Shown here one piece after another: positions 3,001-60,486 of a stretch of 64,000 nt of DNA. The translations under genes were made by a program, and so were the position numbers. The notes under the pieces are model-generated. The model ran no database searches. It was not told the DNA's origin and saw only the letters and a program-made list of their open reading frames with translations. Each line of letters begins with the position of its first letter. Positions within the stretch are counted from its first letter, which is position 1. The stretch spans positions 1 to 64,000 of the forward strand of contig JAVBPW010000001.1 in the NCBI GenBank assembly GCA_031549385.1, written 5' to 3'. Source of the stretch: Alphaproteobacteria bacterium (GTDB lineage: Bacteria > Pseudomonadota > Alphaproteobacteria > Rs-D84 > SZUA-605).

Positions 3001-4832
3001 TCACCATCAAGTCCAAAATAAGCACCGCTGCTATTTCCAACATTAAAACCAATACCATTAACACCAGTTCCTTCAATTGTTCCAGAATTAGTTACAGTTC
3101 CTTTAATATAAACTATATCTATTCCCATTAATAATCCTGATATCGTACCAGAATTAACAATATTTCCATTAAGTTGTGCCCCACGCATAGAACCCTCTGG
3201 TGAAAGAGCCATTCCATAACCACTGGTTCCTTTTATGGTTCCTGTGTTAATTATATCTCCATAAATTTTCACATAAGAATTATAGTAAATTCCATTATAT
3301 CCTATTATTGTTCCATTATTATAAATATTTGATTGTTCAGAGAGACTGTTTCCAAATTTACCACCATAAATTTTAATCCCAGCATCTTCAATATTTACAC
3401 CATTACCCTGTATGATATTACTGTTTGTAATATTACCAACATAGATATCTCCTGAATTAAAAGCTCCAATAGAAATTCCAGAACTTCCAATAATCTTTCC
3501 TTTGTTTAAAATATCAAGATACGAACCTCGAAGATAAATCCCAACATCTAAACTACTAATTTCAGAAGTTGAGGTTTCATTTGTTATAGTTGTTTTCAGT
3601 GAAGCAGAACCCATATTGGAAAAACTTATCCCATTTCCATAAGTTGATTGCGATATTATTTTACCATAATTTTTTATATCAACATAACCACCAGAAGATA
3701 TAATTGATGTCATCTGCCCCGCAGCATCATTTATAATAGTAGCATTCTTACTTATAGATCCAAATTGTCCTTCAACTGCAGCATAGGAACTTGAAATAAT
3801 ACCATAATTTGTTATAGTTCCTGTAAAGTTTGAAAGACTATTAACTCTTATACCATAATTACCTTGCATAACCCCACTTGAATAATTTGTAATATCCCCA
3901 TACATATTAGATGTAATAGAAATCATCGCATTACCAAGCCCACCAGTAAGTAACCCATAATTATTTATATCCCCATACATAACTCCACTCATAGAGATTG
4001 GGATACCAGAATTAATTGTTCCACCATAATAATTAACAATATTCGAACGATCAGTTTCTAAACCAAATTGTCCGTTAATTTCTATACCAATACTATATCC
4101 AAGCATGTTGTTATTTATTGATCCATAGTTATAAATATTTCCAATAAACAGCGTAGAATTAGCTTCCCCAGATTTTCCAATAAGAATTGCAATTCCACCA
4201 TTTCCTTCTATACGTAATTCCCCTCTGTTTGTAATATCCCCATACATTTTCACCCCATTGGATAAAGAAATTAAATCCCCACCATATTGATTTGTAATTA
4301 AAGCACTAGCTTCATTTACAATATAAGATTTCAATAAAGAAGAACCAAATATAGTATTTGCTCCAGCCATTGCAATTGATCCAAAACTGCCTGAACCAAA
4401 AGATGTTGTAAAAGTTGCATTATTTGTGATCGTTCCATACATAGTACCATTACTAAAATAAATAACTGCCCCTCCATTTAATTTAAGTTCAGCATTATTT
4501 ACTATATTCAAATAATTTGTTCCAGAATTTATTTGAACAATATGAGGATTACCAACATATGTCGGACTAACATTATGATTGAATATCAAGTTTGCATAAT
4601 TAGCCGAAGACCCAACTCCCTGAATTAACAACATTCCAGAACCAGAAGGATAGACTGCTTTTGTTTTACAATCATTAACTCCACCATCAATACTTCCATC
4701 ACATGTAAAATATGTTGCGTTTGGTATTGAAGTATTTGCTCCAGTCCAAGTAGTCTGTGAAAACGAATCAGTTGATGTGAATAAAAATGTTGCTGTTAAT
4801 ATTGGAAATATTAGCTTTTTAATAAAATTCAT
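1..4832 (-). CDS. Giant secreted Gly/Asn/Ser/Thr/Ile-rich repeat protein (beta-helix adhesin/autotransporter-passenger-like), runs off the window end
   Basis: ATG at 4832 after AGGAG; signal peptide MNFIKKLIFPILTATFLF; same frame still open at position 3; many IxNxGxIxG repeats; absent from the ORF track, consistent with no stop in the window. Confidence 0.85.
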   Translation of the reverse strand, partial: MNFIKKLIFPILTATFLFTSTDSFSQTTWTGANTSIPNATYFTCDGSIDGGVNDCKTKAVYPSGSGMLLIQGVGSSANYANLIFNHNVSPTYVGNPHIVQINSGTNYLNIVNNAELKLNGGAVIYFSNGTMYGTITNNATFTTSFGSGSFGSIAMAGANTIFGSSLLKSYIVNEASALITNQYGGDLISLSNGVKMYGDITNRGELRIEGNGGIAILIGKSGEANSTLFIGNIYNYGSINNNMLGYSIGIEINGQFGLETDRSNIVNYYGGTINSGIPISMSGVMYGDINNYGLLTGGLGNAMISITSNMYGDITNYSSGVMQGNYGIRVNSLSNFTGTITNYGIISSSYAAVEGQFGSISKNATIINDAAGQMTSIISSGGYVDIKNYGKIISQSTYGNGISFSNMGSASLKTTITNETSTSEISSLDVGIYLRGSYLDILNKGKIIGSSGISIGAFNSGDIYVGNITNSNIIQGNGVNIEDAGIKIYGGKFGNSLSEQSNIYNNGTIIGYNGIYYNSYVKIYGDIINTGTIKGTSGYGMALSPEGSMRGAQLNGNIVNSGTISGLLMGIDIVYIKGTVTNSGTIEGTGVNGIGFNVGNSSGAYFGLDGENALVNNVGGIIKGGKYGVYLSWISFDRGMVLNNGLIEGGDTGAVLYNTGASFINNGTIKGINYSLHAKGLVEYRGNGTLTGGILLEDADFHIGGFNKVPLNKTNVITGTGTITYISGYNYGDSLLRLNYTTAELNQSWSQFAQITSPDKLSILGADDNMYVLNLKKDGAVITQTGKFLLASAANEVYFDVYNVAVVTSLDNNAHAHGYGFDLTNRSLKYSSDFSTGSLDSKKFWLFYALDWWTEGDNSHVESKWFNCDTGTGNDCSTMASAIISLNFSDSINIKSVGKSTDYATLTLNHDMSNYASVAINVMDGVNYLNIINNSDMPRSSFIKIDNSATYNGYIRNNSGKTIQVTNAIQVYGNMNGDIQNYGTIIASNRAIETSPFGGIFTGNIVNSGIIRATSSSYAALSLYSFNGQIQNTGTIENTATGYAIQLDNASQGTSLNHSKILNSSASSKITGGNSGIYSYYTSSYIDIENLGTISGGSSAINLYIAKLLGNLTNSNTIEGLNSGSSGILLKGVGVAMLSSFGSDTESVNLINQTTTSKIIGKNNGILFDIYSAMYGDIKNYGTISGDLSGITFATNSAMYGTVDNSLKIEGVNATNGVGILVSGASSKFGISSSKSYILNRTSSSVITGGKSGIEFSSSSSSYGDITNNGTINGGINGISYLTSAIYNGNIINNKDITGGKIGINFDTTGKLVGSIINNTTGNISGTEHAIYNLNTASAINYQGNGTLVGGLHSAGGFEFSNMTVASASKLAQFNAATGANGIKYSNKGGATQLSIAYITSDTAVAKILSNIGNLAFDTVSLNLTLNSSAILTSSSDSYLIAKSNTLVSYNNLSLLNNGVAMDSSSYRLKVVSNGGYSELWLTFGIDYWTQGDNSHLTDKSYTCIGTNDCTSTVAASDIRIMDVGLTTDQANLNVNHAVTSTNRAIDILGGVNYLTIKNNASISGTNYAIYNNGTTQVNYRGNGTLTGKLFTTATGGFIFSEMTGAPIAN

Positions 4833-41858: not shown

Positions 41859-42527
41859 ATGACACAAGTTAACCAAATTACTACTGATAGTAAATATAAG
41901 ACTTATAACATCTTATTGTTAGTGTCTGTGCTTGCACTTTTAGTTTTGTACTTATTTGTACAATCTAATAAGCCTATCAATAAAGTAGTTAAACCAAATA
42001 ATATTTTTGTAACTAAAACTTCACCAACTGCACCTACTGAAGATATAGATGCTAATAAAGATATTGAAGCTCAAGACAAATTAATTGGAGCTCTTGTTGG
42101 TAAAAATGAACCAGTTAAACCTGTAGTTGAAGAAGTTAAAGAAATTGCAGAAGTAAAACCTGTTGCACCTAAGGTAGTAGAACAACCTAAAACAACTGTT
42201 AGAATTAACAGAAAAATAGTAATTCTTGACTTCGGTAAAAAAGAAGAAGGTAGAACCGTTATACCTGGAGATTATGTAGTTTCTAAAGGATCAAAAAATA
42301 TCTTAAGAGAAAATACTACAGTTAAAGGAAATCTTTATATAGTTAATATCGCTTCTAACTTTAAACTTCCTAAAGGATTACGAGTTGAAGGACATATATA
42401 TATGAAAAATGCTAAAGCTGTTAGATTAAATGAAGATCTTTTACTAGATGGAAATATTTATGTGTATGAAAGTGCTATATTACCTGTTGCTGAAACAGCT
42501 AAGATAGGTGGACAAATCATACTTTAA
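41859..42527 (+). CDS. Membrane-anchored hypothetical protein with C-terminal beta-repeat domain
   Basis: TTGACA...TATAAT promoter, AAGGAG RBS, one TM helix, VKGNLYI/VEGHIY/LDGNIY repeats. Confidence 0.75.
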   Translation: MTQVNQITTDSKYKTYNILLLVSVLALLVLYLFVQSNKPINKVVKPNNIFVTKTSPTAPTEDIDANKDIEAQDKLIGALVGKNEPVKPVVEEVKEIAEVKPVAPKVVEQPKTTVRINRKIVILDFGKKEEGRTVIPGDYVVSKGSKNILRENTTVKGNLYIVNIASNFKLPKGLRVEGHIYMKNAKAVRLNEDLLLDGNIYVYESAILPVAETAKIGGQIIL

Positions 42528-42531
42528 AGGT

Positions 42532-42634
42532 TTCGACCTTCGGTCGAATAGGGTTTGTTGGCTCCCTCCTTATTTTCTCTCTCCTCTTAAACCAACAAAC
42601 CTGAACTTGGCTCCGTGCAATGCGGGGCCATTTT
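42532..42634 (+). ncRNA. Candidate 3'UTR-derived sRNA with CU-rich anti-SD loop
   Basis: Hairpin TTCGAC/GTCGAA; 10-bp stem GGTTTGTTGG/CCAACAAACC with 30-nt pyrimidine-rich loop; terminator hairpin. Confidence 0.6.
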
Positions 42635-42819
42635 CATTCAAACTTGAAGCTGTATACTTATTCTTTTTCAATAGTTTTAATAAAGTTGTAGCAAATGCAA
42701 TTCAAAGATTTGAAAAGGAAAATCCATATAATGTAGTATCTTATTCAATTATGTGGGAGTAATAACAAAATTAAAAAACGCTGGTATAACCCAGCGTTTT
42801 TGTTTTCTCTTCCAACCTA

Positions 42820-46159: not shown

Positions 46160-46444
46160 CTAATTTGATGATTTATAAAGTTGTGTAGATTTTTGTGAAT
46201 CCACATTAATTTTGTCGAGAGTTATTGTACCTTCCCAACCTGCTACTTTTTTGCCATTTACATAGCAACCTGTTTGCTCTTTTTGTTTTGAAATCTTTTT
46301 ATTAGCATTACCTGACATAATTACATTTGCTATACCACCAAGAGCCGCTCCACCAACTGCAGCACCGCCTAGTACACCTCCAACCTGTGCACTGGCAGTA
46401 CCACTAATAAGAATAATAGATAAAACTATTATCAATTTTTTCAT
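46160..46444 (-). CDS. Small secreted glycine-zipper protein
   Basis: Signal peptide then GGVLGGAAVGGAALGG. Confidence 0.7.
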   Translation of the reverse strand: MKKLIIVLSIILISGTASAQVGGVLGGAAVGGAALGGIANVIMSGNANKKISKQKEQTGCYVNGKKVAGWEGTITLDKINVDSQKSTQLYKSSN

Positions 46445-49955: not shown

Positions 49956-50548
49956 TGAAAAAAATTAATTTGGCTGTTTATGATTTCGACGGAACTTTAG
50001 TACCTTTTGAAACTCAATCAAAAATATTATCTTTTGCAATTAAAAAGAATCCTTCAAAGATTCTTTTTTTACCTTATGTGTTAATATGTTTTGTTTTATA
50101 TTTGCTAAAAATTGTTAATGAAACTTATATGAAAAGTTTGGTATTAAAATTCTTAAATAAAAAACTTATAAAAGAATTCTGGCAAACACATGAAAAATAT
50201 CTTTTTAATTGGGTAAAGACAAAATTTGCTCAAGATAAAAAAGATGGAAAAGAGGTTTTTGTTATTTCTGCTTCTCCTGAAAATGTTTTGAAAGATTTTG
50301 TTATGAGAATCGGGGCTGATTATTTTATTGGAACACCTGTTTCAAAAGATGGAAAACGAATCATTGGAAAAAATTGCAAAGGAGTTCAAAAAATTGTATA
50401 CTTAAACAAATGGGCTGAAGAGAATCATCTTGATACTGTTATTGAATCTATGTATTCAGATTCTAAAAATGATTTACCTTTAATGAGATTAGCTAAAATC
50501 TCTTTCTGGGTTGATACTTCAGGAAATTTGAAGAAGTTTAACAAATAA
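49955..50548 (+). CDS. HAD-IB family hydrolase
   Basis: DFDGTL, ISAS, K, YSDS..D. Confidence 0.85.
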   Translation: MKKINLAVYDFDGTLVPFETQSKILSFAIKKNPSKILFLPYVLICFVLYLLKIVNETYMKSLVLKFLNKKLIKEFWQTHEKYLFNWVKTKFAQDKKDGKEVFVISASPENVLKDFVMRIGADYFIGTPVSKDGKRIIGKNCKGVQKIVYLNKWAEENHLDTVIESMYSDSKNDLPLMRLAKISFWVDTSGNLKKFNK

Positions 50549-50560
50549 AAAAGAGAGATT

Positions 50561-51436
50561 ATGCTATTTTTAAAACTTTTTTCTTCTGGGAAACAAAGTA
50601 ATAGCTTGGACGAAAAAAAAATCAAAAAAGAAATAAGATTTATTTTAAATAAAGCTGATGCACTTAGACCTGCATTTACAAAATATATAAAAGAGAATAT
50701 GGCTAAAGGACTGTCTTATGATATTGGCCCGACCAAAACTTTTGCTAGATCTTTTGAAAAAGTTATCAAAGAAAAAGGCGGTAATGTTTCTCGATTGAAA
50801 GATTCTTATCGTGGTGCTATTTATTTTGATACTCTTGAACAACTTTATTCTTTCATAGATAGATTAGTTAAATATCAAAATAAAGATTTTGAAATTATCC
50901 ATATTGAAGATTCTTTTTATCCTATTGTGGTAAGTGGAAATATTAAAATTCATCATGCACAAGCTGAGCTTACCTCAAGATTATATAGAGATATAAAAAT
51001 TATTGTTAATAGTAAAAAATGGAATATTCCAGGGGAAATTCAACTTCATTTTAATCAATATGTAACTGTGAAAGATGAAACTTATAGACTTTATGGAAAA
51101 GAAAGAGAATATATTTCTCAACTTAAACAAGGTTTCTTAAATGATGGAAGAAATATAAGAATTTTTAGAAAAATGATGAGATATAAAAAACAAACTATTG
51201 CTCTGAATGAACTTGCTATTATTAAATATAATTTAATTTCAAAAGATATTGAGTTTATGAAAACTAAAGATGTTGTTTATCTTTATATGAAGAAAAATAA
51301 AATTACCGATTATGATTATGCTCTTTATGAAATTATTGTTTCACGTACTGTTAAAGAATTAAAGTTTCGAAAGAATTTTTATTTGAAACAATTTTATAAA
51401 TATGATCTTGATTTTATAAAAGCTGTAATTTCTTAA
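50561..51436 (+). CDS. RelA/SpoT-type nucleotidyltransferase-domain protein
   Basis: K...R..EK, LKD..RG.I, YRDI, EIQLH motifs. Confidence 0.6.
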   Translation: MLFLKLFSSGKQSNSLDEKKIKKEIRFILNKADALRPAFTKYIKENMAKGLSYDIGPTKTFARSFEKVIKEKGGNVSRLKDSYRGAIYFDTLEQLYSFIDRLVKYQNKDFEIIHIEDSFYPIVVSGNIKIHHAQAELTSRLYRDIKIIVNSKKWNIPGEIQLHFNQYVTVKDETYRLYGKEREYISQLKQGFLNDGRNIRIFRKMMRYKKQTIALNELAIIKYNLISKDIEFMKTKDVVYLYMKKNKITDYDYALYEIIVSRTVKELKFRKNFYLKQFYKYDLDFIKAVIS

Positions 51437-51512
51437 AAAATAGAGCCCTCATCGCGAGGGCTCATGTTTTCAGTTAACACTACAACTTTATTGCATATTT
51501 TGCCAACTCTGG

Positions 51513-51677
51513 TCACTTAAAACCAACAGGGAACTTTGGCATCGTTTGCGCTTTTGACTTATTGGTTGCGGGAATATGCGAACCCGCGCTGGATGTGTGT
51601 GCCGTAAACGGCGATGAAGGAGAAAACACCTTCGGGATATCCAGGAACCAATTTAGCCATTTTATGACTTTGTGCAT
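51513..51677 (-). CDS. Possible 54-aa small protein MHKVIKWLNWF... (array unit A)
   Basis: Lies between TTGACT-N17-TAATTT (51737..51709) and terminator 51443..51463; AAACTTAA leader. Confidence 0.4.
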   Translation of the reverse strand: MHKVIKWLNWFLDIPKVFSPSSPFTAHTSSAGSHIPATNKSKAQTMPKFPVGFK

Positions 51678-51743
51678 TTATATTTTTATTTTTTAAGTTT
51701 GTCATATCAAATTAGCAAATAATTATTTTGAAGTCAATAGGAT

Positions 51744-51966
51744 AAAAAAATGCCCCGCTATCTCTCGATAGTTATGGGGGCAAATATATCTACACAGAAC
51801 TAATGATTTAATTCACTACTGCCAATAATCACAGCTACGTGAAGCCTGATGAAAAAAGCCTGAACATAATGTTAACTGGTTAAGTTTGTAACTTGATTCT
51901 TAGAGCTTTCTTTTAGTCCCCTCCAAAGGACGTTTGATTTTTTAAATAAAAAAGTTTTTAACGTGA
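51744..51966 (-). ncRNA. Candidate small transcript, array unit B
   Basis: TTGATT-N17-TATATT (52001..51973); terminator 51752..51781; only a 10-codon ATG ORF found. Confidence 0.5.
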
Positions 51967-52007
51967 GTTATCAATATAAATTTGTTTTATCTTTAAATCA
52001 AGCAAAT

Positions 52008-52471
52008 AAAAAAAGCCCCGCTATCTCACGACAGTTATGGGGGCTTTTGTAAAGTTATTCGATAGTTCTCGCGTCTACAAGGATACTACGAATAAAGGAA
52101 TATTCTTAAAAGAAACTTCTAGATATCTCACGACATGGGGAAGAAGTTTCTTTGATGAGACATATAATGAAGACATTATAGCTCAGCGGCATCTTTAAAA
52201 GCTCAAAGAGCTTTGTTAACGCGGGGAGAAAAGAGATCAGAACCCGAAGGCTCTTTGTCTTAACTCCCCCAAACGTGATGGAGGCACGTTTAATATTTTA
52301 TAAAGATACTTATTGTCTTTTAAAAAACCCAGCACGAGCTATGAAGACTCCTAAACCCCAGCGGAAAGGGGAATTTGGCACAGGAGTTACGTGCTGGGTT
52401 CGATTTTGCACCCTTGACCTCAAAGAGGTTGCGACAGTGCGGTGTATTTATTTAATTTTATTATTATGATT
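52008..52471 (-). ncRNA. Candidate ~460-nt structured RNA, array unit C
   Basis: TTGACA-N17-TAAATT (52506..52478); about eight stem-loops with GNRA and cUUCGg loops; terminator 52015..52044. Confidence 0.6.
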
Positions 52472-52525
52472 TCTAGTAATTTAGAATCTTTTTATAAATT
52501 TGTCAACCAAAAGATGAAGTTTAAT

Positions 52526-52709
52526 AAAAAAAATCCCCAGCATTAAAGCTGGGGGCGGAGTTAATACCCTTTATTCCCTTGTATTCAGGAGGATAAGTTC
52601 CGGTCATATACTTCTTATAATACAGCTCCTTAAGCCGCCCTTTTCGCTCGCCACTACTGGTGACGCCTTAATTCTCTTCTGTCCACTGTTTTATGTATTA
52701 ATAAGATGT
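52526..52709 (-). ncRNA. Candidate small transcript, array unit D
   Basis: TTGACT-N17-TAAAGT (52744..52716); terminator 52535..52554 plus U8. Confidence 0.5.
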
Positions 52710-52768
52710 AGCCTTACTTTATGAAAGATATTGGGATTAGTCAATAAAAAAAGCCCGTATTTCTTGGA

Positions 52769-52954
52769 TTATTGGTGCTTTTCTAGGAATGTTTTCAAAT
52801 CTTGAGCTAACAATTTCAAAGAACTGTCATAAATATTAGCATTAGATGCTTCCAGCTTTTGCTTTTGCATCACCTTTTTTGTGGTTTCTGATAATCCACC
52901 GTCAATTACTTGAAATTTTGATCTTTTTTCAAAAGGTGATTCTGGTAATGCCAT
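52769..52954 (-). CDS. Small hypothetical protein
   Basis: AAGGA RBS; FQVIDGG short motif. Confidence 0.55.
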   Translation of the reverse strand: MALPESPFEKRSKFQVIDGGLSETTKKVMQKQKLEASNANIYDSSLKLLAQDLKTFLEKHQ

Positions 52955-53044
52955 CTTTTTTGCTTTCCTTTGATTTTTGGTTGCTATTTCTCTTAAAACT
53001 TTTATTATTATATCATAATTTTTAAACTAAGGAAAGAAATTTTT

Positions 53045-55495
53045 ATGAAATTGTTAATAGTAGAGTCTCCTGCAAAAGCGAAAACCATCAATAAATATTT
53101 AGGTTCTGACTTCAAAGTTATTGCATCTGTAGGACATGTGAGGGATTTGAAGGCTGAAAATAATGCTGTGGATACTGAAAACAATTTTAAACCTTTATGG
53201 GAAGTTTCTAAAGACAAAGAAAAACAAATCAAAGAAATTGAAAAATTACTTAAGCAAGCTGATGAATTGTACCTCGCAACCGACCCTGATCGTGAAGGAG
53301 AGGCTATTTCTTGGCATTTATTGGATATTTTATCTGAAAAATCACCTATTACTATGCCTGTTAAACGAGTCGTATTCCATGAAATCACTAAAAAAGCTGT
53401 TCAGGAAGCAATGGCGAATCCAAGAGATATTGATCAAAACCTTGTAAATGCTTATATGGCACGCCGAATCCTCGATTATTTAGTAGGATTTAACTTATCC
53501 CCAGTTTTATGGAGAAAATTACCAGGATCTAAAGCTGCTGGTCGTGTTCAATCTGTAGCTACTCGATTAGTTGCTGAAAGAGAAGGCGAAATTGAAGATT
53601 TCGTTAAAGAAGAATTTTGGTCTATTGATGCTAAATTCAAAACTCAAGAAGGAAAAGAATTTGATAGTAAGCTTTGGACATATAATAATGAAAAGCTTGA
53701 AAAGTTTTCTATTAAAAATGAAAAACAAGCAAAGGAAATCGAATCCGAATTAAATAAACTTACTTATTTTGTTTCAAATGTAGAAAAAAAGAAAACTACA
53801 CGAAATCCATTTGCTCCATTTACCACTTCAACTTTACAACAGGAAGCTTCACGTAAACTTAGATTTGCTGCAAAGAAAACTATGCAAGTTGCTCAAAAGT
53901 TATATGAAAATGGACTTATCACTTATATGAGAACTGATAGTGTGAATTTGGCTCAAGATGCTGTTGTTGCTATTAGAAATGAAATTAATACAAATTATGG
54001 TGAAAAATATTTACCAGAAAAACCTATTGTATATGCTAATAAATCAAAGAATGCTCAAGAAGCTCACGAAGCTATTCGTCCTTCTGATGTTACTAAGTCA
54101 CATCGTAACTTAGATGGAATCGATGCAGATGGTATCAAACTTTACGAACTTATATGGAAAAGAACTATTGCTTCTCAAATGGAAAAAGCTCAATTTGACC
54201 AAGTATCTATTGATATTTCTTCTCAAGATAAAAAGAATACATTTAGAAGCGTTGGTACAACTTTAACATTTGATGGATATTTAAAAATATATAACGAAGA
54301 TAAAGATGATGACAACGATGATGAAGCATCAAAATTGTTGCCTCTTATGAATGAAGGTGAAAAATCTGATTTAGTTGAATTGAAATCTGAACAACATTTT
54401 ACTCAACCGCCTGCAAGATATTCTGAAGCGACACTCGTTAAGAAGCTGGAAGAATTAGGAATTGGAAGACCTTCTACTTATGCTGCTATTTTAGCGCGAA
54501 TCGTAGACCATGAATATGTTAAATTAGAAAAAATGAAATTCCATGCTACTGAACGTGGTCGTTTAGTTACTGCATTTTTAAAAAAATATTTTCCTATATA
54601 TGTTGAATATAATTTTACTGCTGGAATGGAAGATAAACTCGATGACATTTCAAATGGAGATATTGATTATTTGAAAATTTTAAGAGAATTTTGGGATCCA
54701 TTTATTTCTACTGTTAAAAATTCTTCTGGATTGCAACTTGAACAAATTGAAAAAGATTTACAAGAAGAATTAAAGAATCACTTATTCAAACCCCAAGACG
54801 GTGTTGATGTTTATAAATGTCCTGATTGTGCAGATGGAAAGCTTGGTTTAAAACTTGGAAAGTTTGGTGGGTTTATTGGATGTTCTAATTATCCTGAATG
54901 CAAATATACTAAACAAATTGTAACCAATGAAATTCCTGTTGCTGCTACTGATAAAAATGGCTCTAATGGAGATGCTGGATTAATCGGTAATGATAATGCA
55001 ACTGGTCTTGGTATTTATTTGAAAAAAGGACCTTATGGAAATTATTTACAACTTGGCGATAATGCGAATCATGTAAAAAGATTTTCATTACCTAAAAATT
55101 TTGACGAATCAACTTTGACTTTAGAAAAAGCACAAGAGTTTTTATCTTTGCCTAAAAAATTAAATGAAGAAATAGAAGTTGGTATTGGAAGATTTGGACC
55201 TTATATTAAACGCGCAAATGCATTTACTAAGATGCCTGCGAATCTTGATCCATTAACTATTACTCTTGATGAAGCATTAGAAATTTTAAAAGATGCTCCT
55301 TCACGAGAAGCTGCTATTAACTTAGGAGTCGAACCTAAATCAAAGAAAGATGTTTTATGGTATAAAACTGGTAGGTACGGACCTTATGTAAAATGCGGAA
55401 AAGTTTCTGCTTCTATTCCTGCGGAATATAAAGACAAAGAAATAGATTTGAAAATTGCTCTGCAAATCTTGAATGATAAAGTTAAAAAGAAATAG
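53045..55495 (+). CDS. topA: DNA topoisomerase I
   Basis: IVESPAKAKTI, ATDPDREGEAI, GRVQS, ITYMRTDS, AHEAIRP, GIGRPSTY, zinc ribbon. Confidence 0.98.
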   Translation: MKLLIVESPAKAKTINKYLGSDFKVIASVGHVRDLKAENNAVDTENNFKPLWEVSKDKEKQIKEIEKLLKQADELYLATDPDREGEAISWHLLDILSEKSPITMPVKRVVFHEITKKAVQEAMANPRDIDQNLVNAYMARRILDYLVGFNLSPVLWRKLPGSKAAGRVQSVATRLVAEREGEIEDFVKEEFWSIDAKFKTQEGKEFDSKLWTYNNEKLEKFSIKNEKQAKEIESELNKLTYFVSNVEKKKTTRNPFAPFTTSTLQQEASRKLRFAAKKTMQVAQKLYENGLITYMRTDSVNLAQDAVVAIRNEINTNYGEKYLPEKPIVYANKSKNAQEAHEAIRPSDVTKSHRNLDGIDADGIKLYELIWKRTIASQMEKAQFDQVSIDISSQDKKNTFRSVGTTLTFDGYLKIYNEDKDDDNDDEASKLLPLMNEGEKSDLVELKSEQHFTQPPARYSEATLVKKLEELGIGRPSTYAAILARIVDHEYVKLEKMKFHATERGRLVTAFLKKYFPIYVEYNFTAGMEDKLDDISNGDIDYLKILREFWDPFISTVKNSSGLQLEQIEKDLQEELKNHLFKPQDGVDVYKCPDCADGKLGLKLGKFGGFIGCSNYPECKYTKQIVTNEIPVAATDKNGSNGDAGLIGNDNATGLGIYLKKGPYGNYLQLGDNANHVKRFSLPKNFDESTLTLEKAQEFLSLPKKLNEEIEVGIGRFGPYIKRANAFTKMPANLDPLTITLDEALEILKDAPSREAAINLGVEPKSKKDVLWYKTGRYGPYVKCGKVSASIPAEYKDKEIDLKIALQILNDKVKKK

Positions 55496-60294: not shown

Positions 60295-60486
60295 ATGGCA
60301 AACAAAAAAAATGCCTCGGCAGGCGAGACAGCTTACAACCAACATCAAAACACAATTAAATTCCAAGGACCGGTCACCGGGAAAAATAAACCTCATTATG
60401 GCCAATATGCCGCAACAACTCAAGAGTTGCGAGACAAAAGTAAACACTTGGTACAAGGCGGTGATGTTTTTATACCTTGGTGGTAA
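60295..60486 (+). CDS. Small hypothetical protein (SD-less cassette)
   Basis: TTGACA upstream, AAACTTTA leader, terminator AGCCAGC/GCTGGCT. Confidence 0.5.
   Translation: MANKKNASAGETAYNQHQNTIKFQGPVTGKNKPHYGQYAATTQELRDKSKHLVQGGDVFIPWW

Follow-up and report, generated by a model that had tools for sequence, protein, structure and literature searches.

A tandem cluster of probable non-coding RNA genes beside a RelA/SpoT-like gene in a small alphaproteobacterial genome

A region of about 1.3 kb in a small alphaproteobacterial genome (0.93 Mb, 30% guanine plus cytosine (GC), 8 contigs, 97% completeness) carries four short units, A to D, that run head to tail on the minus strand, each from a promoter-like site to a terminator-like hairpin. 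The array lies within the window analysed here, which comprises the first 64 kb of contig C7, between a plus-strand open reading frame (ORF) of 291 amino acids (aa) that encodes a RelA/SpoT-like protein (50561-51436) and a minus-strand ORF of 61 aa (52954-52769); topA (53045-55495) follows, divergent from the latter, and the sequencing runs that contain this DNA are labelled invertebrate gut metagenome. The stretch is probably a cluster of independent, lineage-specific non-coding RNA genes with their own sigma-70-type promoters and intrinsic terminators, a judgement that concerns their nature as non-coding RNA genes and does not include a mechanism. It draws on the clustering of transcription signals, exact RNA contigs in units C and A, base composition and the coding capacity of the units.

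Transcription signals, transcripts and coding capacity

Four boxes of the form TTGA(C/T)N-17-TANNNT, all on the minus strand, define the array, and a hairpin with a T-run lies 3-25 nucleotides (nt) ahead of each. Four such minus-strand units, with a promoter box, a 17-nt spacer and a GC hairpin followed by a T-run, had been claimed in a preliminary description made from the sequence alone, and all of them are present where it placed them. The predicted hairpin energies are -16.0 (A), -14.9 (B), -17.4 (C) and -15.7 kcal/mol (D), with 6-8 T residues after each, and together with an internal hairpin of unit C the minus strand holds five terminator-like hairpins in total. Each short unit is enclosed by its own promoter-like site, recognized by its match to the consensus and with a predicted start site, and by an intrinsic terminator.

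A single promoter box means little here, because such sites are no more numerous than in shuffled sequence: the box pattern itself occurs 17 times in the window against 16.1 +/- 3.8 times in shuffles, and a general promoter scan of both strands over 4.5 kb gave 19 sites, about one per 470 nt of strand, against 20.0 in shuffles. The clustering of the boxes is another matter. Among the 285 matches found genome-wide on both strands, at least four same-strand matches fall within 1.1 kb at only four places, where a Poisson model of the whole genome predicts 0.05. Additionally, junctions at which a hairpin of -10 kcal/mol or better with at least six T residues is followed within 25 nt by a promoter box number 19 in the genome; three of these lie in the array and the remaining 16 mostly between ordinary genes. 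The signals of the array are credible because, elsewhere in the genome, this type of junction seems to be the usual boundary between the end of one unit and the start of another.

Two of the terminators are related. The hairpins of units B and C were said to be identical at 28 of 30 positions, and this was confirmed, the differences being a GAGA versus a GUGA loop and an A-U versus a G-U pair, with the structure kept by both; two such structure-keeping changes are too few to prove selection. The B and C terminators, each with the promoter that follows, form a local duplication of about 59 nt, and pairwise local alignments of the units otherwise score at shuffle level, except for 37 nt of the B/C terminator. 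More copies of the 30-bp hairpin, for which the preliminary description had proposed to look in the genome, did not turn up: a genome-wide search found two full copies and one partial copy (core at 52140-52124), all within the locus. Dispersed hairpin repeats of the REP, ERIC or RPE type were rejected, the B/C hairpin being confined to the locus and the self-search returning only short AT-rich chance matches.

Transcripts were sought in two metatranscriptomes (X2 and X3) of one study, whose contigs were compared with positions 50400-54000. Three X2 contigs match without a single differing letter, one in unit C (52038-52450; 413 nt, depth 13.8) and two in unit A (51530-51634; 105 nt, depth 183; and 51516-51559; 44 nt, depth 159). 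In X2, exact contigs are missing from the 291-aa gene, from units B and D, from the 61-aa ORF and from topA, and the X2 pieces that fall on the flanks (41-56 nt, with 3-7 differences) derive from the topA genes of other organisms. X3 gave only chance matches of 18 nt, and in both data sets units B and D and the flanking genes lack contigs, which is no proof of absence. Since the flanking genes are silent in X2, carried-over DNA cannot explain the array contigs. We infer that units B and D are transcribed as well.

The unit C contig begins some 21 nt past the expected start (~52471) and runs into the first bases of the terminator hairpin. Folding of the unit gives -147.2 kcal/mol and a z-score of -9.06 on the minus strand, versus a z-score of -4.81 on the plus strand, and the predicted structure is a chain of about nine hairpins with tetraloops of the UUCG and GUGA types and, at 52284-52278, a CCUCCAU loop. 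The promoter, the terminator, the asymmetry of the fold and the contig together therefore point to a minus-strand RNA of about 460 nt. A weak promoter-like site lies behind the long internal hairpin of this unit, which may be two units, and the unit C RNA may exist alongside a shorter form, about 150 nt in length, whose end is the internal hairpin.

The second transcript, RNA-A, is abundant, and its strand is harder to assign. The contig end at 51507 bears 21 loose letters, which we take to be the end of an Illumina adapter and whose orientation, if the library was stranded by the dUTP method, would presumably make RNA-A a plus-strand molecule with its 5' end at 51507. A plus-strand promoter-like site stands at the right distance from this end, which is estimated to happen by chance at about 1-2 in 100 given points. 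The minus-strand promoter of unit A is at least as good as the plus-strand one, and folding does not discriminate between the strands (z-scores over 266 nt of -3.68 on the minus and -2.67 on the plus strand; -1.4 versus -1.1 for the 128-nt core). In X2, the predicted minus-strand unit A has no cover over its first, AT-rich 68 nt, and no RNA contig lies over the hairpin at 51435-51463 (the bin 51368-51488 stands at 0). Taken together, these observations tip somewhat towards a plus-strand RNA-A, and it is possible that both strands of unit A are transcribed from two convergent promoters.

The stretch 51437-53007 is the ninth longest of 652 gaps free of ORFs when ORFs of at least 100 aa are masked, and of the eight gaps that exceed it, seven are accounted for by contig ends or the rRNA operon. 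The GC content within the array region was described as higher than that of its flanks, and it is indeed 0.33-0.445 as compared with 0.205-0.295. GC-rich ORF-free islands number 55 in the genome. Known genes for tRNA, rRNA, tmRNA or RNase P overlap 34 of them, and the array region accounts for four of the 21 others. Such islands are a fair marker of RNA genes in this genome.

The longest ORFs in the array region have 54 aa on the minus strand (51677-51513, as the preliminary description had it) and 64 aa on the plus strand. The GC content at third codon positions (GC3) of the ORFs within the units is 0.29-0.51, versus 0.171 +/- 0.048 (99th percentile 0.33) for the 547 long ORFs of the genome; the 291-aa neighbour has 0.12 and the 61-aa ORF 0.26. 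No long frame is opened by reading TAG as Q or by genetic code table 4. Coding is thus excluded because the GC3 is unlike that of real genes and no long frame exists under three genetic codes. The units have no protein-coding capacity, for which GC3 is the clearest test. The features of the locus are collected in Table 1.

Table 1. Coordinates of the units, their signals and the neighbouring genes (positions in the window)
Feature	Coordinates	Strand	Description
291-aa gene	50561..51436	+	Predicted divergent RelA/SpoT-like (small alarmone synthetase) fold
Two-way terminator hairpin	51435..51463		GAGCCCUC/GAGGGCUC, -16.0 kcal/mol; common to the 291-aa gene and unit A
Plus-strand promoter-like site	51474..51501	+	TTAACA-16-TATTTT; the RNA end at 51507 lies 6 nt beyond it
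RNA-A, at least 128 nt	51507..51634		Exact RNA contigs; adapter joint marks one end of the molecule at 51507
Unit A promoter-like site	51709..51737	-	TTGACT-17-TAATTT; TGC ahead of the second box
Unit B terminator	51744..51782	-	GAGA loop and A-U pair, followed by T7; matches the unit C hairpin at 28/30 positions
Unit B predicted transcript, ~220 nt	51744..51966	-	AT-rich, weak fold
Unit B promoter-like site	51973..52001	-	TTGATT-17-TATATT
Unit C terminator	52008..52048	-	GUGA loop and G-U pair, followed by T7; paralogous to the unit B terminator
Unit C predicted RNA, ~460 nt	52008..52471	-	Promoter, terminator, fold; exact RNA contig 52038-52450
Unit C internal long hairpin	52325..52401	-	-34.1 kcal/mol, then T6; terminator-like, yet spanned by the RNA contig
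Unit C promoter-like site	52478..52506	-	TTGACA-17-TAAATT, 10/12 match
Unit D terminator	52526..52554	-	CCCCAGC/GCUGGGG hairpin, -15.7 kcal/mol, then A and T8
Unit D predicted transcript, ~185 nt	52526..52709	-	GC 0.47 at 52548-52690; z-score -2.16
Unit D promoter-like site	52716..52744	-	TTGACT-17-TAAAGT; the 61-aa ORF stops 25 nt ahead of it
61-aa ORF	52769..52954	-	Divergent from topA; weak homologue at the same place in the nearest relative

Relatives, mechanism and competing explanations

Known RNA families were sought on both strands of the array at E values up to 10 and over the whole window at the gathering score. This Rfam scan, which had been proposed as a check, found no family at the gathering threshold on either strand of the array, where the best match was sroD with 30.3 bits against a cut-off of 50; in the whole window the sole match that passed was tRNA-Phe. 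The genes for RNase P, the two-piece tmRNA and the signal recognition particle (SRP) RNA are all encoded elsewhere in the genome, and the units were therefore rejected as misplaced copies of any of these. A Y-RNA reading was dropped, Ro/TROVE being absent. ARAGORN detected no tRNA in the units, and with relaxed thresholds it returned only spurious 'tRNAs' with huge introns.

Sequence searches with the 1.3 kb were likewise negative. BLAST matched 0 of 327 other genomes of the order; the genome itself gave only short AT-rich matches and 40 relatives only short matches at chance level. No match to the array was found in plasmid or phage collections, and two exact array patterns were absent from viral contigs. 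Metagenome contigs scanned with the 291-aa pair gave nothing, and the same scan with TopA gave 19 loci, all of 61% identity or less. Single-sequence covariance models of the unit A core (R1) and the middle of unit C (R2) had no true hit in 40 and 39 relatives, respectively: an R1 match in genome G002 was rejected because the whole structured core is absent, and an R2 match in genome G006 proved to be a gene-end terminator pair, adjoining a 291-aa ORF that is unrelated to that of the window. The nearest relative genome has a TopA identity of 61%, and tests of conservation and covariation have low power because the relatives are too distant.

Several observations weigh against an array of RNA genes. 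Promoter-like hexamers are common in 30%-GC DNA, with 19 found locally where 20 were expected. The RNA support consists of contigs from one run of one study, which give no strand, reliable ends or expression level; units B and D have no RNA contig; and the ends of RNA-A (51507 and 51634) match neither the minus-strand promoter nor the terminator of unit A. Unit B folds no better than shuffled sequence (z-score -0.88), and no relative above 61% TopA identity occurs in the collections searched, so that conservation and covariation lend the units no support. The targeting mechanism considered below depends on two motifs so short that, by an estimate from base composition, about 0.2 per strand would arise by chance. 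Thus, the sRNA (small RNA) array envisaged in the preliminary description stands as regards the absence of coding capacity and the RNA contigs for C and A, whereas the missing contigs for B and D and the boundaries, and possibly the strand, of RNA-A do not fit it.

If the units are RNA genes, their products could act in trans as Hfq-independent regulators, and Hfq was not found in the genome. Exposed C-rich, anti-Shine-Dalgarno-like loops (CCUCCAU in unit C, CCUCCU in unit D) would then pair with the ribosome-binding sites of target mRNAs; unit D also contains a Shine-Dalgarno-like AAGGAG in addition to its CCUCCU. Such pairing is a tentative and rather doubtful guess from two short motifs. 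An RNAduplex comparison with 838 start regions gave no usable target, its ranking being dominated by GC-rich false start sites over tRNA genes.

The main rival, although unlikely, holds that the units are transcribed relics, that is, promoters and terminators of genes lost in genome reduction that would still drive functionless RNA. The nearest relative keeps only topA and a small divergent ORF of 70 aa at this place, followed by engB-yidC-rnpA, genes that lie 120 kb away in the genome studied here, and because engB, yidC and rnpA follow the topA-side ORF in that relative, the array sits at a synteny breakpoint, as relics might. The same reading would accommodate an AT-rich unit B that folds like shuffled sequence, the local duplication of the ~59-nt terminator and promoter module of B and C, and the lack of a homologue anywhere searched. 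However, decay in a 30%-GC genome should drift towards AT, and the units have a GC content of 0.40-0.445; neither the extra-stable UUCG and GNRA loops nor a fold z-score of -9.06 is what decay should leave; and there is no codon-position signal in any frame. The depth of RNA-A (~160-183), with the neighbouring genes unseen, suggests a stable, selected RNA. Decay fits unit B best and unit C worst, and for the locus as a whole RNA genes remain the preferred explanation.

It is improbable that the array is instead a stack of terminators or a long 3' untranslated region, whose hairpins would stop transcription arriving from the 61-aa ORF and topA region before it reached the convergent 291-aa gene. 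The hairpin of the 61-aa ORF itself is weak (-7.3 kcal/mol), and five terminator-like hairpins follow on its strand. Yet a single terminator would suffice, a fresh promoter box follows each terminator, and the RNA comes from inside the array (unit C and the unit A core), with none over the 61-aa ORF or unit D. The 61-aa ORF itself is probably a real conserved small protein gene with no assigned function; the nearest relative has a weak 70-aa homologue in the corresponding place (tblastn E 0.001), and both contain a GGLS motif.

The neighbour on the other side had been called RelA/SpoT-like, a description supported at the level of fold or superfamily by a low-confidence predicted structure and by distant homologues. 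The 291-aa protein matches nothing in Pfam, NCBIfam or PADLOC and has one close homologue (58% identity). An AlphaFold model built from the two sequences has a predicted local distance difference test score (pLDDT) of 57.5, which is low confidence, and its top Foldseek matches are all small alarmone synthetases (SASs; RelP, RelQ, SAS1/2), with an E value of 3.5e-5 and template modelling (TM) scores of 0.25-0.42; CapRel appears further down the list. A profile search gave 67 distant relatives, and RelA_SpoT Pfam hits occur in three of the ten best distant homologues, one of them above the cut-off. The conserved columns of the family (D81/R84, Y142-R143-D144, E159, T174/Y178) presumably correspond to synthetase motifs. 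A canonical RelA/SpoT domain (RelA_SpoT in Pfam) was not found in the genome. In another alphaproteobacterial assembly, a 314-aa relative lies between rnc and rmuC (locus L079, 3935-4879), and its GC content of ~0.30 in a background of 0.43 suggests a horizontally acquired stand-alone gene.

This neighbourhood raises the very improbable alternative that RNA-A or the array is an RNA antitoxin, or a tRNA-mimicking decoy, of the adjoining enzyme. The predicted SAS-like fold, with the tRNA pyrophosphokinase CapRel among the model's matches, would agree with it, as would the position of the very abundant RNA-A, 70 nt past the stop codon of the 291-aa gene, and the fact that no protein antitoxin gene stands beside that gene; furthermore, the minus strand of unit A can be drawn as a closing stem of 6-7 bp stacked on a T-arm-like hairpin. 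The tRNA-like reading was rejected, however: the T-arm likeness amounts to 15 of 18 bases, with an alignment score that does not exceed the shuffle null, and the contig omits the 5' strands of the tRNA-like helices of an RNA that may in any case be plus-strand. Pairing with the start region of the gene is not apparent either, the duplex energies of the unit RNAs ranking from 171 to 773 among 838 start regions (with ranks of 624 and 711 bearing on this alternative), and L079, the only other inspectable genomic copy of the family, has no RNA array. The antitoxins or decoys suggested in the preliminary description thus found no support. In the accounts of PMC7229694 and PMC11782079, the partners of toxSAS enzymes are proteins. 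If the alternative were true, RNA-A would be the first RNA, rather than protein, to restrain a toxSAS-type enzyme.

Micropeptide genes, also proposed earlier, are still less credible. A 48-aa frame begins with an ATG at 51705, 4 nt after the second box (TAATTT) of the unit A promoter, where it would permit a leaderless mRNA, and minus-strand ORFs of 32-54 aa, including the 54-aa frame, are present; their GC3 of 0.43-0.51 exceeds the 99th percentile of the genes of this genome, there is no Shine-Dalgarno sequence at a working distance, and the unit A contig overlaps the 48-aa and 54-aa frames only in part. A search of 5.8 billion proteins gave no homologue of the 54-aa frame, although its power is low for an organism without close relatives.

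A known RNA family that has diverged beyond its model, such as 6S, can be set aside with similar confidence: 6S (RF00013) was found in 0 of 41 genomes (this one and 40 relatives of the order), and RNA-A is abundant, as 6S usually is, yet no Rfam threshold is reached on either strand, as noted for sroD, and both RNAs fold into multiple hairpins and not into the long rod with a central bubble that is the shape of 6S.

Further arrays and other loci in the genome

The promoter clustering recurs in the genome. A second, cleaner array at locus L072 (3344-4524; G000:C7:382343-383523, plus strand) packs six promoter-to-terminator units into 1.2 kb, with promoters that match at 9-11 of 12 positions, TG ahead of most of them, and 15 terminator-like sites against 2.6 expected. 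One of its units (~4076-4255) has a frame of about 59 aa, judged by eye, and two paralogous matches to the start region of this frame occur in the genome; 40 relatives yielded no homologue. Four same-strand promoter boxes within 1.1 kb also occur at G000:C7:353322-354034 and at G000:C7:419013-419575 (plus strand), the former comprising a unit with an 88-aa ORF and a non-coding unit of ~160 nt directly before tRNA-Trp.

Three more GC-rich stretches in the window (GC 0.40-0.46), at 42524-42652, 46293-46435 and 60312-60467, contain no ORF of at least 100 aa and coincide with none of the known RNA genes; they could represent small genes or additional RNA candidates. At G000:C2:66626-66796 (minus strand), ARAGORN reports a tRNA with a CUA anticodon, labelled 'Pyl', beside an odd tRNA with a shortened anticodon loop, which may be a suppressor tRNA or, together with its neighbour, a pair derived from a phage. 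TAG is an ordinary stop codon in this genome, because it terminates 95 of the 547 long ORFs.

If the RNAs are real, a 0.93-Mb, host-associated alphaproteobacterium in which Hfq was not found devotes 1.3 kb to non-coding RNA genes, and at least three further loci of its genome show the same promoter clustering. Two uncatalogued structured RNAs would be added, one of them about 460 nt long, that are among the few transcripts of the locus assembled by a gut metatranscriptome. GC-rich, ORF-free promoter-to-terminator units would then offer a workable route to RNA genes in such genomes, and the position of the array beside an orphan RelA/SpoT-like gene raises a testable question about RNA control of this class of enzyme. 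What makes the locus valuable is chiefly its transcript evidence, together with the recurrence of arrays of this sort in the genome.

Comparison with known systems

Tandem promoter-to-terminator sRNA genes are a known kind of arrangement, of which LhrC1-5, PrrF1/2 and OmrA/B are examples, and the RNAs of the present array match nothing catalogued.

Toxin-antitoxin loci offer a further comparison. Type I systems combine a small hydrophobic toxin peptide with an overlapping antisense RNA; this type was rejected here, since the neighbour is a 291-aa enzyme-like protein and the overlap is limited to the common terminator hairpin. In type III systems of the ToxIN type, tandem direct repeats of an antitoxin RNA lie upstream of an endoribonuclease toxin in one operon, and this type was rejected as well: no repeat unit is present, the RNA is positioned downstream of, or convergent to, the gene, and the protein has a predicted RelA/SpoT-like fold and is no endoribonuclease. 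What the array shares with ToxIN and toxSAS loci is that a non-coding RNA locus adjoins the gene of an enzyme whose fold, here a predicted one, includes tRNA-acting toxins.

Surveys of Rickettsia describe many lineage-specific intergenic sRNAs in reduced genomes (PMC4683814, PMC4896933, PMC5105140). The present locus resembles the sRNAs of Rickettsiales in the small, AT-rich genome of a host-associated alphaproteobacterium and in expressed non-coding RNA that is mostly lineage-specific; unlike them, the units are packed as an array, match no sequence or model and belong to an order without detectable 6S in the 41 genomes searched.

A close parallel is with the tandem sRNA genes of Alphaproteobacteria themselves, AbcR1 and AbcR2, which one report presents as tandemly encoded, trans-acting sRNA genes (PMC3712013). 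In contrast to arrays of the AbcR, LhrC, PrrF and OmrA/B type, which consist of sibling RNAs, as do those of the NsiR1 type, and which mostly act with Hfq, the units described here share one terminator only, and Hfq was not found; unit C, at ~460 nt, is far longer, and no AbcR or other alpha-sRNA model matches. Nevertheless, like AbcR1 and AbcR2, they are short non-coding units arranged head to tail in one intergenic region, each with a sigma-70-type promoter and an intrinsic terminator, and with C-rich, anti-Shine-Dalgarno-like motifs as the suspected seed.

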